From the sequence record NC_048731.1: 64,000 nucleotides of DNA, one strand, 5' to 3'. Every line of letters starts with the position of its first letter. Within the stretch, counting starts at the first letter, position 1. Below the pieces are notes generated by a model, which did not search any database, had not been told where the DNA came from, and saw nothing but the letters and a program-made list of their open reading frames with translations. This document shows positions 4,947-31,290 of the stretch, piece by piece. The DNA comes from Escherichia phage fp01. Position numbers and translations under genes: made by a program.

Positions 4947-5022
4947 TGGAGCGGCTAGAGGGAATCGAACCCTACTCAGCGAGGCTTGGAAGGCCTGCGA
5001 CACAACCCGTGTGCTTAACCGC
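4947..5022 (-). tRNA. tRNA-Gly (anticodon TCC)
   Basis: acceptor GCGGTTA/TAGCCGC, anticodon loop CTTCCAA, T-loop TTCGATT, CCA encoded. Confidence 0.65.
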
Positions 5023-5114: not shown

Positions 5115-5190
5115 TGGCAGAAGGTAGTGGGTTCGAACCACTGATCGGGGTTTCAGAGACCCCAGCCTTAACCGACTTGGCTAACCTTCT
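5115..5190 (-). tRNA. tRNA-Gln (anticodon CTG)
   Basis: acceptor AGAAGGT/ACCTTCT, anticodon stem GGGGT/ACCCC with loop CTCTGAA, T-arm AGTGG-TTCGAAC-CCACT, CCA encoded. Confidence 0.65.
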
Positions 5191-5749
5191 TCTTAATACT
5201 TTTTGGATCTTTACCTGTTAAGGATTTATAACGTTTACGTAGTCCGTTATCAGATAACCCTAACTCTTTTGATGCTTTAACCCATGAATAGTTTATTACC
5301 CAATATTCTATTTGCTCTGCTGTAATATCAGGGCTACTCTTAGGTTTACAGTCAAAACAAGTTTTAGAGGAAGAATTTATTTGTTTATTACAGTAAGGGC
5401 ATTTATTACCACCTATTGTATGCCCCCTTTCAACTGTAGTTTTTATTCTATGCTCTTCCTTGGTCATGACCACCAGATTATCTAAGGAAAAGTTCAATTT
5501 ATTCCTATCTTTGTGATCCACTTCTAGTTCAGATTCTAGTGAAGGTAAATCTTTAAATACTCTAGCTAATAATCTATGCAATACAATAGAGACATTCTTA
5601 CCCTGCTCATAGAACGTTACAAACGGATACCCTGCACTACCTAAGTGATGTGTTAGTAATTTATTACTCTTAGTAGAGTAAACCTCCCCATATGGGGAGA
5701 TTAAGTATTTGGGATACTCCGGAATTACTTTGAAATTCTCTAATTTCAT
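5168..5749 (-). CDS. HNH homing endonuclease
   Basis: 193 aa; HNH motif VDHKDRNKLNFSLDNLVVMTKEEHRIK; Cys pairs CPYC/CFDC; 3' end overlaps the tRNA-Gln(CTG) gene by about 23 nt. Confidence 0.7.
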   Translation of the reverse strand: MKLENFKVIPEYPKYLISPYGEVYSTKSNKLLTHHLGSAGYPFVTFYEQGKNVSIVLHRLLARVFKDLPSLESELEVDHKDRNKLNFSLDNLVVMTKEEHRIKTTVERGHTIGGNKCPYCNKQINSSSKTCFDCKPKSSPDITAEQIEYWVINYSWVKASKELGLSDNGLRKRYKSLTGKDPKSIKKKVSQVG

Positions 5750-5750
5750 C

Positions 5751-5951
5751 TTACTCTACAGGAACCGTGGCGATTGGTTCTGGATCTTCTAAACGTTTGC
5801 CTTCATGATCTACTCGAATAACTCCGCATCCCTCGCAAATCACAACAGCACCGTAGCCTTCTTTAACTTCAGCTTCTGTAATCAAACCAGAAAGATCACC
5901 AGTATCTCTGCCCCACATATCAATGGAGCATTGTTTGCAGAAATCAGCCAT
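5751..5951 (-). CDS. hypothetical Cys-rich small protein
   Basis: ORF track 66 aa; CKQC ... CEGCG motifs. Confidence 0.45.
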   Translation of the reverse strand: MADFCKQCSIDMWGRDTGDLSGLITEAEVKEGYGAVVICEGCGVIRVDHEGKRLEDPEPIATVPVE

Positions 5952-5976
5952 ATTTTATTTCCTATTTAAGTTAATT

Positions 5977-6053
5977 TGGGGTGGCTAGTGGAATTCGAAT
6001 CCACATAGGCCTGATTCACAATCAGGATCATTAACCAATTATGATATAGCCAC
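5977..6053 (-). tRNA. tRNA-His (anticodon GTG)
   Basis: acceptor GTGGCTA/TAGCCAC, discriminator C, D-stem TCAT/ATGA, anticodon stem CCTGA/TCAGG with loop TTGTGAA, CCA encoded. Confidence 0.75.
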
Positions 6054-6422
6054 AATTGAAAACTCGCAGGGTTAGCGAAACCTTCCTCAATTAGCATGTT
6101 CTAGAATACTAATCAAGTTATCTCCTATTGCACGCAGCTCAAGACGAGTACGAATTTTCAATTGTGGCGGCTCTCCGAAACTCTTCTACTCTAGCCTTAG
6201 CAGCTTACTCCCGAACGCATGTCGGGAAAGTCTTACTAAGAGCATCAAATAGCACCGTTACACTTTGAGCCATAGATATATCAAGAAGCAGAAGGACTTG
6301 AACCTTCACGAGATAGACCATTTATCTCAGCCGCTTTATGAGGTATGTTGCAGGGAGTGGATGTTCCCTATAAACCTTTTAGGCAGCCCCGTCTACCGAT
6401 TCCGGCATACTTCAAGAATTTT

Positions 6423-6596
6423 TTATAAACCAGCAGAAGCCTCATTTAAAGCATCAACAATAGCTTCACGTTGGGTCATTCCGTACCCGGTGGAATCTAG
6501 GTGTGGCAAATAAGCCATCCATCCCTTATCTGTTTCATGAAGACATGCTTTAAATTTTTTACCATCCTTCATTGTTACAGTAACTGTTTTGCTCAT
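6423..6596 (-). CDS. small HicB-like (antitoxin-fold) protein, 57 aa
   Basis: manual translation MSKTVTVTMKDGKKFKACLHETDKGWMAYLPHLDSTGYGMTQREAIVDALNEASAGL; the Y-x-P-x-L-x-G-x-G-x-T-x-x-EA-x-x-A-x-x-EA pattern resembles HicB/UPF0150 N-domains. Confidence 0.4.
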   Translation of the reverse strand: MSKTVTVTMKDGKKFKACLHETDKGWMAYLPHLDSTGYGMTQREAIVDALNEASAGL

Positions 6597-6616
6597 AAGA
6601 CTTCCTTATAGTTAAT

Positions 6617-6706
6617 TGGCAGAAGATAATGGAGTCGAACCATCACCGTATCGCTACAGCGGGCTGGTTTTCAAGACCAGTTACGTACCACTACGTCCTA
6701 TCTTCT
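6617..6706 (-). tRNA. tRNA-Ser (anticodon TGA), type II
   Basis: acceptor AGAAGAT/ATCTTCT, anticodon stem CTGGT/ACCAG with loop CTTGAAA, long variable arm, CCA encoded. Confidence 0.7.
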
Positions 6707-6712
6707 ATTGTT

Positions 6713-6803
6713 TGGCGGAAGAGGAGAGATTTGAACTCTCAAGCCGTTTTACCAGTCAGCCGCTTTCCAAGCGGTTTTCGTCGCCAATTCGATTTGCTCT
6801 TCC
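6713..6803 (-). tRNA. tRNA-Ser (anticodon GGA), type II
   Basis: acceptor GGAAGAG/CTCTTCC, T-arm GAGAG-TTCAAAT-CTCTC, anticodon loop TTGGAAA, long variable arm, CCA encoded. Confidence 0.7.
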
Positions 6804-7079: not shown

Positions 7080-7411
7080 AAATTCTTTAGTTTACTAAGG
7101 CTATTAGCTCGGCGTAACTACAGCACCTTCGCTTCGAGCGGAAGGAACTGCGTCATCTCGCAAACCCAATACACTATTCAGTTGCCACTGAATCTAGTGG
7201 ACTAATCTAGAACTTCTCCCGAATCGTAGGGATCGTGCTTTTTGGCAGCCAGTCCTAGGTCGAGCTAATACCTTAGTGAACTAAATTGATGGATACCAGA
7301 CTAATTTTGCTACGACGTTTATCCTGAGGATCTCTTTTTCGGTAGCTCTGCTAGTGTAGACGTCATACACCTGATATCTAGGCAGCTATTTTCGCATCAA
7401 TTTATATAAAT

Positions 7412-7440
7412 ATTATAACAAGAAATTAAGCATCAAGCAA
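7412..7440 (-). promoter_or_regulatory. T5-type early promoter (minus strand) firing into the ORF-free region 7080-7405
   Basis: plus attata 7412-7417, aagcaa 7435-7440, 17-bp spacer; flanking caatttatataaatatt block. Confidence 0.55.
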
Positions 7441-7458
7441 CTGCGTTTTTCTTGAAAT

Positions 7459-7537
7459 TGGTAGATCGCCTGGGACTCGAACCCAGAACCTTCCGATTAA
7501 AAGTCGGATGCTACTAAACCTATTGAGCTAGCGATCT
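7459..7537 (-). tRNA. tRNA-Lys (anticodon TTT)
   Basis: acceptor AGATCGC/GCGATCT, anticodon stem TCCGA/TCGGA with loop CTTTTAA, T-arm CTGGG-TTCGAGT-CCCAG, CCA encoded. Confidence 0.75.
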
Positions 7538-29415: not shown

Positions 29416-31290
29416 ATGAATCGCAATGAAGAACTAAAATATAAAGAAATGCAGGCGTTAATTAGAAACTGCAAAGAGATTATCGAAGGGTCAGCAGACG
29501 AAGAGCTGCTGTTTAATAATGCCAATAAACCCTCAGAACGTTTTCCTACACAAAGGGATATGCTTGCAGGTGAGTTGAGTAAGTATCTGATTCTAGAAGA
29601 AATGCCAATTCAGATTCGAAATGCTCATATGATTGGGGATATTCATTTCCATGATGCTGATTATGCTGCATTAGGCATGACTAACTGTTGCCTGGTAGCT
29701 CTGGAAGATATGTTAAAGAATGGTATGAAGGTTGGTAATGCTGAAATTAGCACTCCAAACTCTATCACTACTGCGGCGGCTATCACTGCTCAGATTATCA
29801 CTCAAGTTAGCTCCCATCAGTATGGTGGTACTTCTGTAGATCGCCTTGATGAAGTATTAGCCCCTTATGTTCGTAAATCATATGATAAAAATCATGCGTT
29901 TGCAAAACGTTGGACTAAGGATGAAGCCAAAGCATCCGTAATGGCTACGGAGATGACTGAAAAAGAAGTCTATGACGCTTGTCAGGGTTTAGAATATGAA
30001 ATCAATACCATGTTCAACTCTAATGGTCAGAGTCCATTTATTACCTTTGGTTTTGGTCTAGGAACTTCTTGGGAAGCACGTCTAGTACAGAAAGCAATAC
30101 TGAAAGTACGCATGGATGGTTTAGGTATCAATAAACGTACAGCTATCTTCCCGAAACTGGTATTTGTACTTCGTGATGGCGTAAATATGAAACCAGGAGA
30201 TGTTAATTATGACATCAAGAAGTTAGCTATGAAATGTACTGCTGAACGTATGTATCCAGATTATATCAGCTATGACAAGGTTGTAGAAGTTACTGGAGAC
30301 TACAAAGTTTCTATGGGCTGCCGTTCATTCCTAGCTGCTACAGAAGATGGTGAAACTGCCGGCCGTAATAACTTAGGTGTTGTTTCTGTAAACTTGCCTA
30401 GAATTGCTATCGAAGCTGAGGGAAATATTGACCTATTCTTTGATTTGCTTGAGCTACGTGTGGATACAGCGTTAAAAGCATTGGAGTGGAGAGTTGATCG
30501 CTTAAAATACATTCAAGCTAAAGCTGCACCTATCCTCTATATGTCAGGAGCCTTTGGGTTACGCTTGGAGCCTGATGAGTATGTATTCGATCATTTCTAT
30601 AACCGTGCTTCTGTATCTCTAGGGTATATTGGTTGCCATGAAATGCTACAGTTTATGTTTGGCAAAGATGTAGACACAATGTCCGAGACCTGCATCAAGT
30701 TTGTTCAGCGTGTATTGCAGTACATGCGGGATAGAGTCGATCAGAAGAAGGAAGAAACTAAGTTAGGTTATAGCCTGTATGCTACACCATCAGAATCCCT
30801 ATGTGACCGTTTTTGTCGTCTAGACCGTGAATATTTCCCAGAGCATGAAGATATTCTGTCCAAAGGATACTACACTAACTCGCACCACCTTGATGTAGAA
30901 CGTAAAGTTGCTCCCAATGTGAAATTTGATTATGAATCTAACTTTACTCCGATTGCTTCTGGTGGGTGCATTTCCTATGTAGAACTACCGGATATGAAAC
31001 GATTCCCAGATGCACTGGAATGGGTTATTAATTATGCTGCTAGTAAGGTTCATTACTTCGGTATTAATACCCCAGTGGATTCTTGTGGTAAATGTGGATT
31101 CTTAGGTGAAACAATAGCATCCGAAGATGGATTTAAGTGCCCTATCTGTGGTAATCATGACCCCGAAACTCTTGAAGTAACTCGTCGAGTTTGTGGGTAT
31201 CTTGGAAATCCGGGTGCTCGTCCATTTAACCCCGGCAAACAGCACGAGGTTATGGGCAGAGTGAAACATCAGGATATTCGAGCTAAATAA
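29416..31290 (+). CDS. nrdD: anaerobic ribonucleoside-triphosphate reductase (class III)
   Basis: 624 aa; C-terminal Zn-ribbon CGKCGF...CPICG followed by glycyl-radical motif TRRVCGYLG. Confidence 0.95.
   Translation: MNRNEELKYKEMQALIRNCKEIIEGSADEELLFNNANKPSERFPTQRDMLAGELSKYLILEEMPIQIRNAHMIGDIHFHDADYAALGMTNCCLVALEDMLKNGMKVGNAEISTPNSITTAAAITAQIITQVSSHQYGGTSVDRLDEVLAPYVRKSYDKNHAFAKRWTKDEAKASVMATEMTEKEVYDACQGLEYEINTMFNSNGQSPFITFGFGLGTSWEARLVQKAILKVRMDGLGINKRTAIFPKLVFVLRDGVNMKPGDVNYDIKKLAMKCTAERMYPDYISYDKVVEVTGDYKVSMGCRSFLAATEDGETAGRNNLGVVSVNLPRIAIEAEGNIDLFFDLLELRVDTALKALEWRVDRLKYIQAKAAPILYMSGAFGLRLEPDEYVFDHFYNRASVSLGYIGCHEMLQFMFGKDVDTMSETCIKFVQRVLQYMRDRVDQKKEETKLGYSLYATPSESLCDRFCRLDREYFPEHEDILSKGYYTNSHHLDVERKVAPNVKFDYESNFTPIASGGCISYVELPDMKRFPDALEWVINYAASKVHYFGINTPVDSCGKCGFLGETIASEDGFKCPICGNHDPETLEVTRRVCGYLGNPGARPFNPGKQHEVMGRVKHQDIRAK

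Follow-up and report, generated by a model that had tools for sequence, protein, structure and literature searches.

What does a 57-amino-acid open reading frame (ORF) do in the middle of a phage transfer RNA (tRNA) array, and is it, as an initial annotation proposed, an orphan antitoxin of the HicB type? The question is raised by the 64,000-nucleotide stretch of Escherichia phage fp01 (sequence record NC_048731.1) that was analyzed here and is referred to below as the window. A megablast search with positions 5900-6800 recovered 510 phage records, all from T5-like Demerecviridae and with a best identity of 99%, which identifies the phage as a T5-like form (Tequintavirus). Two references were used for annotation, the T5 genome AY543070 and the curated record AJ604531 ("Bacteriophage 5 tRNA gene region"), and every feature of the region is annotated in them; indeed, annotation of the gene in question and of the RNAs next to it in T5, BF23 and phage 5 goes back about twenty years. 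The value of our analysis is hence mainly corrective: the ORF is a genuine gene of the T5.063 family, the HicB label is unsupported, and what was described as an ORF-free remnant beside it is made up of three stable RNA genes.

A conserved gene between tRNA-Ser(UGA) and RNA1

The initial annotation correctly placed the ORF inside the tRNA array; it is encoded on the minus strand and begins with an ATG. Its immediate setting comprises the following features:

6423..6596, minus strand: T5.063-family ORF, ATG start, 57 amino acids, protein MSKTVTVTMKDGKKFKACLHETDKGWMAYLPHLDSTGYGMTQREAIVDALNEASAGL
6601..6607, minus strand: Shine-Dalgarno sequence AAGGAAG, read from the sequence, 4 nucleotides upstream of the T5.063 ATG
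6617..6706, minus strand: tRNA-Ser(UGA), detected by ARAGORN, directly preceding the ORF on the transcript
6420..6616, minus strand: presence/absence cassette of about 197 nucleotides (ribosome-binding site, ORF and stop codon), between the 3' end of tRNA-Ser(UGA) and the 5' end of the stable RNA termed RNA1

The ORF is the orthologue of T5.063 (AAS77109), ORF060 (AAX11997) and ORF trn 2.14 (CAE53217), with protein identities of 100% to the phage 5 version (ORF trn 2.14) and 96.5% to that of T5, where the counterpart, named ORF060 in AY587007 and T5.063 in AY543070, lies at 30651-30824. PHROG 16298 (function unknown) matches the protein end to end (residues 1-57 of 57, E = 2e-41), and this full-length profile match, together with the position after tRNA-Ser(UGA), places it in the T5.063/PHROG 16298 family. 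Nothing material distinguishes the locus from those of T5, phage 5 and BF23, the ORF being equally long and lying between tRNA-Ser(UGA) and RNA1 in all of them, and AJ604531 annotates a ribosome-binding site at the position equivalent to AAGGAAG.

Full-length tblastn matches to the ORF are found in about 106 phage records and form two branches, with >90% and about 57-61% identity, respectively. Pairwise ratios of nonsynonymous to synonymous substitution rates (dN/dS) among six orthologues range over 0.09-0.41, and are 0.1-0.3 for pairs at just 57-61% identity, with dS saturated over this deep divergence. In the same six sequences changes at third codon positions are about twice as frequent as at either other position, every indel consists of whole codons, and the reading frame is kept, giving proteins of 57-60 amino acids with the same C-terminus and a conserved stop codon. 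Given the dN/dS values, the codon-position bias, the in-frame indels, the conserved stop and the Shine-Dalgarno sequence, T5.063 is a real protein-coding gene under purifying selection, and the coding conservation in relatives on which the initial proposal depended is borne out.

Profile searches extended the family to metagenomic members with identities down to 39%, bringing the total to 16 clusters, and a HMMER search of 1.8 billion representatives yielded just two further true members. Eight other matches from that search were set aside as spurious: they were long proteins made of repeats, in which several short segments aligned, or entries without a reported matched stretch. A scan of one genome from each of 185,579 species recovered no relatives in bacteria or archaea. 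All 14 loci found in IMG/VR are on T5-like contigs, which measure 95-121 kb except for a 14.5-kb fragment of the BF23 tRNA region. A search of the literature on T5.063, ORF060 and the T5 locus tags yielded no functional study.

The predicted fold and its relation to HicB

An AlphaFold2 model built from a 17-sequence alignment (predicted local distance difference test score, 94.6; predicted template modelling score, 0.78) indicates with high confidence that T5.063 would be a compact single domain, in which a four-stranded β-meander (predicted strands 2-8, 14-22, 25-30 and 35-39) packs on one C-terminal helix (42-55). The protein ends at 57 amino acids, two residues past this single helix, and the orthologues all stop at the same place. 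Residues G12, G37, D48, A49, N51, E52 and L57 are invariant in the family and P31-H32 are nearly so; the P-H motif is missing from the most distant homologues (P0023 and P0024, 39-46% identity), in which the otherwise conserved W-x-A-Y-L-P-H-L segment is replaced by Y-E-A-H-C-N. As called, 16 of the 17 sequences have an isoelectric point of 4.2-6.7 and a net charge of 0 to -5; the one exception is P0019, whose isoelectric point of 9.3 goes with an over-called N-terminal extension overlapping tRNA-Ser.

Judging from the model, the fold appears to be a βββα core of a generic kind, to which one strand is added at the N-terminus, and this core resembles those of both the HicB N-domain and the double-stranded RNA-binding domain (dsRBD); it is thus compatible with the HicB N-domain, not diagnostic of it. 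A Foldseek search of the PDB with the model gave no match at E < 0.1, the top match being the first dsRBD of R2D2. In BFVD the model matched T5.063 itself and further small, uncharacterised proteins of phages, with an annotated "Antitoxin" appearing at E = 0.46 only.

The initial assignment to HicB had been made from a residue pattern, which is present in the form Y29-x-P31-x-L33-x-x-x-G37-x-G39-x-T41-x-x-E44A45-x-x-x-A49-x-x-E52A53, the EA-x-x-A spacing originally given being one residue short. In an hmmscan of all 17 members against Pfam, NCBIfam and PADLOC (E <= 10) there was no HicB, UPF0150, dsrm or defence family, with only sub-threshold LSM matches, and a PDB sequence-profile search with the family profile gave nothing significant (LSm, E = 0.077) and no HicB. 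HicB N-domain profiles were also constructed from PDB-verified seeds (E. coli 6hpb, S. pneumoniae 5yrz and Y. pestis 4p78), their database relatives and 51 phage-borne N-domains. Comparison by hhalign gave a probability of 0.5% with the narrow profile and of 10-13% with the wider one; the latter alignment (score 19.0 over 39-42 columns) pairs β2-β3-β4-helix of T5.063 with β1-β2-β3-α1 of HicB. None of 240 composition-preserving decoys reached this score, the column shuffles having a mean of 8.9 (standard deviation 2.0) and the block shuffles a mean of 10.4 (standard deviation 2.6) and a maximum of 18.2. A dsRBD profile, used as a fold-matched control, scored 15.1 over 13 columns against T5.063 (probability 2.4%), and the HicB N-domain and dsRBD profiles scored 16.5 against each other. 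When a hidden Markov model of the HicB N-domain was run on the window, the T5.063 ORF obtained 3.1 bits and rank 6, which is not separable from random segments.

From these comparisons the resemblance to HicB appears faint and non-random, slightly better to the HicB N-domain than to the dsRBD and far below any accepted threshold for homology; the faint signal may reflect either very distant ancestry or convergence. The significant profile match sought for the initial annotation was found neither in Pfam, NCBIfam or PADLOC nor in the PDB profile search or by hhalign. What survives of the HicB-like reading is a compatible fold class and a faint profile signal; membership of the family and the suggested function are not upheld. 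T5.063 is not a demonstrable member of the HicB family and the label should not be propagated.

T5.063 also differs from HicB in architecture and context. The HicB N-domain (PF15919 HicB_lk_antitox; 6g1c, 6hpb, 4p78, 5yrz), with which T5.063 has no significant profile match, has a β-β-β-α-β arrangement of the partial RNase H-like or TTHA1013-like type, whereas the T5.063 model has one strand more at the N-terminus and none following the helix. Canonical HicB further possesses a C-terminal DNA-binding domain of the ribbon-helix-helix or helix-turn-helix type, which serves autoregulation; it is lacking in T5.063, as it also is in some single-domain UPF0150 proteins. Unlike the HicB family, T5.063 has no HicA neighbor and no bacterial homologues, and is found in virulent phages only. 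The absence of an adjacent HicA-like partner, noted from the start, held up in a Pfam analysis of the neighboring genes; nor was any HicA detected elsewhere in the window by six-frame phmmer (726 segments, best E = 0.41) or in the gene lists of the contigs carrying T5.063 homologues. In a positive control on genuine HicB loci of phages, an adjacent HicA was present at every locus whose flanks were complete (58 of 58).

A facultative gene and its possible role

T5.063 is a facultative gene, present in roughly a fifth of T5-like phages. The RNA block downstream of it is found in 498 records, 271 of them at >=80% coverage, as against about 106 for the ORF. Aligning carriers of the gene with non-carriers shows that beppo, GSP044 and slur09 lack the cassette and have the 3' end of tRNA-Ser, ...CCAAAT, joined directly to the 5' end of RNA1, CTTGAAGTATGCC; the window phage and T5 both carry the insert of about 197 nucleotides, the boundaries of which (6420..6616) are ambiguous by a few bases due to short AAT/AATT repeats. 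The ORF starts 20 nucleotides after the 3' end of tRNA-Ser(UGA) and ends about 6 nucleotides before RNA1, and the order tRNA-Ser(UGA)-T5.063 is kept across Tequintavirus, Epseptimavirus and a more distant metagenomic phage (loci L003-L007 and L009/L010). In slur09 and GSP044 (L012/L013, about 1267-1361), which lack the ORF, the tRNA-Ser abutting RNA1 clearly differs in sequence from tRNA-Ser(UGA) of the window; therefore, the neighboring tRNA was apparently replaced along with the cassette polymorphism in some lineages. The contig encoding the distant homologue P0023 (L008, 546-719) presents another context, namely small genes in a T4-like run without tRNAs, a Phage_T4_Y00F protein being encoded alongside, and hence the domain is not intrinsically tied to tRNA arrays.

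The gene can also be lost by T5 without penalty in laboratory E. coli. The viable deletion T5-123 (Δ29191-32442 in AY543070.1 coordinates) takes out T5.063 (30651-30824) completely, and the likewise viable T5Mos deletion (Δ30661-38625) leaves only 10 nucleotides of it (PMC11464382). In the CRISPRi-ART screen of T5 it is listed as "unknown function, phrog_16298", with 7 guides, and classed as "Not Fit" (PMC11879866 supplement). Based on the two deletions and this classification, T5.063 is dispensable in laboratory E. coli.

How, then, might a gene that is both under purifying selection and dispensable serve the phage? We tentatively favor, as possible if somewhat short of probable, a general model in which T5.063 is a genuine, translated and dispensable accessory gene whose product acts on its own by binding a factor of the host or of a competitor. 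The protein would be made from a polycistronic early tRNA/mRNA transcript starting at the promoter P13b and would act stoichiometrically as a protein-binding module, most plausibly as an inhibitor or decoy of a factor of the host or of a competing element that is relevant in some hosts only. Contacts would likely be made through the invariant helix residues D48, N51 and E52, which face the solvent, together with the loop carrying P31-H32 and the C-terminal end ...SAGL, likewise invariant. Such a role would be of the same kind as the host-range and counter-defence roles of other dispensable elements in this part of the T5 genome. A counter-defence function has precedents in the region: the suppressor of PARIS in T5 mapped outside T5.063, to tRNA-Lys (PMC11464382), and T5.076 is given as an anti-retron protein in the CRISPRi-ART supplement (PMC11879866).

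With respect to concept, the proposed mode of action recalls other small phage proteins. T4 Dmd is a stand-alone antitoxin-like inhibitor of RnlA/LsoA encoded by a phage, and T5.063 would be like it in that a small, dispensable protein made early by the phage could neutralise a host toxin although the phage encodes no matching toxin. The likeness ends there, as the two have no sequence or demonstrated structural relationship and T5.063 has no known target.

Among the alternatives, the likeliest, though still unlikely, is that T5.063 is a truncated dsRBD-like or Sm-like RNA-binding protein which would process, stabilize or chaperone tRNA-Ser, RNA1 or the stable RNAs RNA I or RNA III that follow it. 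Compared to the dsRBD (PF00035; α-β-β-β-α with a basic KKxAK region), T5.063 lacks helix α1 and the basic RNA-contact residues and is neutral to acidic, and it cannot be placed in that family by either Pfam (no dsrm match) or the hhalign comparison given above.

It is quite improbable that the cassette is a mere passenger with little or no function for the phage, having either hitch-hiked by co-conversion with HNH homing endonucleases or arisen as a chance ORF. The clean presence/absence polymorphism between highly conserved tRNA and RNA sequences, the proximity of HNH homing endonuclease genes (5168-5749 in the window; hegC and hegD in T5) and the lack of a fitness effect upon loss of T5.063 in T5 are all in keeping with a passenger. 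Nevertheless, the strong purifying selection over deep divergence, the invariant surface residues and the conserved length and C-terminus show that the protein sequence itself is selected, and in two genera, as well as in metagenomic phages, this site is occupied by divergent orthologues. The version of this explanation that invokes a chance ORF is excluded.

The proposal of the initial annotation, namely an orphan HicB-type antitoxin in which a stand-alone HicB N-domain neutralizes HicA-type mRNA interferases of the host and so blocks toxin-mediated abortive infection, is very improbable: it has the residue pattern and the faint profile signal in its favor, and against it the profile searches, the missing C-terminal DNA-binding domain and the HicA-less context detailed above. 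Were that weak signal to reflect a real function, a classic virulent phage would have a toxin-free antitoxin mimic among its means of counter-defence, and a role would be gained for one of the many small ORFs in the T5 tRNA region, the region in which the PARIS-defeating tRNA was found. Least probable of all is a variant of this idea, in which T5.063 would be an extremely diverged, minimal HicB-N-like domain that virulent T5-like phages carry without a toxin, as a portable decoy against toxins or defences directed at HicA-type RNases (dsRBD fold) or at some other basic effector of the host. This variant would account for the invariant acidic face of the helix and for the cassette being facultative and host-dependent.

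Stable RNAs and the surrounding tRNA array

The stretch that follows the ORF on the transcript (6054-6420) was initially described as ORF-free, with a T-arm-like motif, and taken as a possible remnant of an inserted element. It has no ORF of >=60 amino acids on the gene strand. Its sole longer ORF, of 82 amino acids and antisense (6265-6513, plus strand), was rejected as spurious because it is interrupted by stop codons in T5, SPC35 and SB10. The stretch and the region upstream of the tRNA-Ser genes contain these features:

6055..6160, minus strand: RNA III, stable RNA of 106 nucleotides, 105/106 identical to rnaIII of AJ604531, fold z = -2.7
6165..6271, minus strand: RNA I, stable RNA of 107 nucleotides, 104/107 identical to rnaI of AJ604531, fold z = -2.2
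6272..6416, minus strand: RNA1, tRNA-like stable RNA, 141/145 identical to rna1 of AJ604531
7099-7270, minus strand: RNA 2H, the fourth annotated stable RNA, 168/172 identical to the annotation
7386..7460, minus strand: promoter P13b, 75/75 identical to P13b of AJ604531, the nearest annotated promoter upstream of the tRNA-ORF-RNA run

RNA III, RNA I and RNA1 are annotated in T5, BF23 and phage 5 as "stable RNA with unknown functions". As these widely conserved RNAs fill 6054-6420, the notion of a remnant does not hold for this stretch, and what is left of it applies to the ORF itself, which is cleanly present or absent as a cassette. The T-arm-like motif was confirmed and belongs to RNA1 (GAAGGTTCAAGTCCTTC, 6291-6307, minus strand). 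This RNA aligns end to end with the Rfam tRNA model at a sub-threshold score (25.2 bits at 6283-6414, the gathering score being 29), and it folds as a type-II tRNA-like cloverleaf with an insertion of about 45 nucleotides at the position of the anticodon loop and a long variable arm. In a distant metagenomic contig (L009, 4261-4347) a bona fide tRNA-Ser(GCT) takes the slot of RNA1 after the ORF, and its 17-nucleotide T-arm is identical to that of RNA1 in the window. RNA1 may, by this comparison, be a degenerate or interrupted derivative of tRNA-Ser(GCT). The 3' end of RNA I, ...GAGCC-G-CCA (the sequence ends ...GCCGCCA), pairs with its 5' GGCUC in the layout of an acceptor stem followed by a discriminator base and CCA, which suggests a tRNA-like 3' end on a 107-nucleotide RNA that is otherwise unlike a tRNA. 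RNA 2H and P13b fill the apparently empty gap between tRNA-Ala and tRNA-Lys.

The 23 tRNA genes detected by ARAGORN all lie on the minus strand, from 3.4 to 15.6 kb; two tRNAs that it missed were added by comparison with phage 5, and the region also encodes a homing endonuclease:

4947-5022, minus strand: tRNA-Gly(UCC), missed by ARAGORN, 76/76 identical to phage 5
6713-6803, minus strand: tRNA-Ser(GGA), missed by ARAGORN, 90/91 identical to phage 5
5168-5749, minus strand: HNH/NUMOD4 homing endonuclease, orthologue of T5 hegD (F-TflII)

The second of these tRNAs gets just 24 bits in Rfam, as tRNA-Sec. A further neighbor, on the minus strand at 5751-5951, encodes a 66-amino-acid CxxC...CxxC protein (T5.062/trn 2.15) with no Pfam match, which is named a 'transcription factor' in phage phiP4. 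In the CRISPRi-ART screen T5.062 is 'Semi-Fit' and among the notable genes (PMC11879866), in apparent conflict with its falling inside the viable T5-123 deletion (PMC11464382). The hegD orthologue overlaps the 5' part of tRNA-Gln(CUG) at 5115-5190, a tRNA annotated as a pseudogene in T5, and the window lacks the hegC endonuclease that T5 has between tRNA-Ser2 and tRNA-Leu. The T5-like presence of hegD combined with the phage-5-like absence of hegC thus makes the region a mosaic of T5-like and phage-5-like arrangements.
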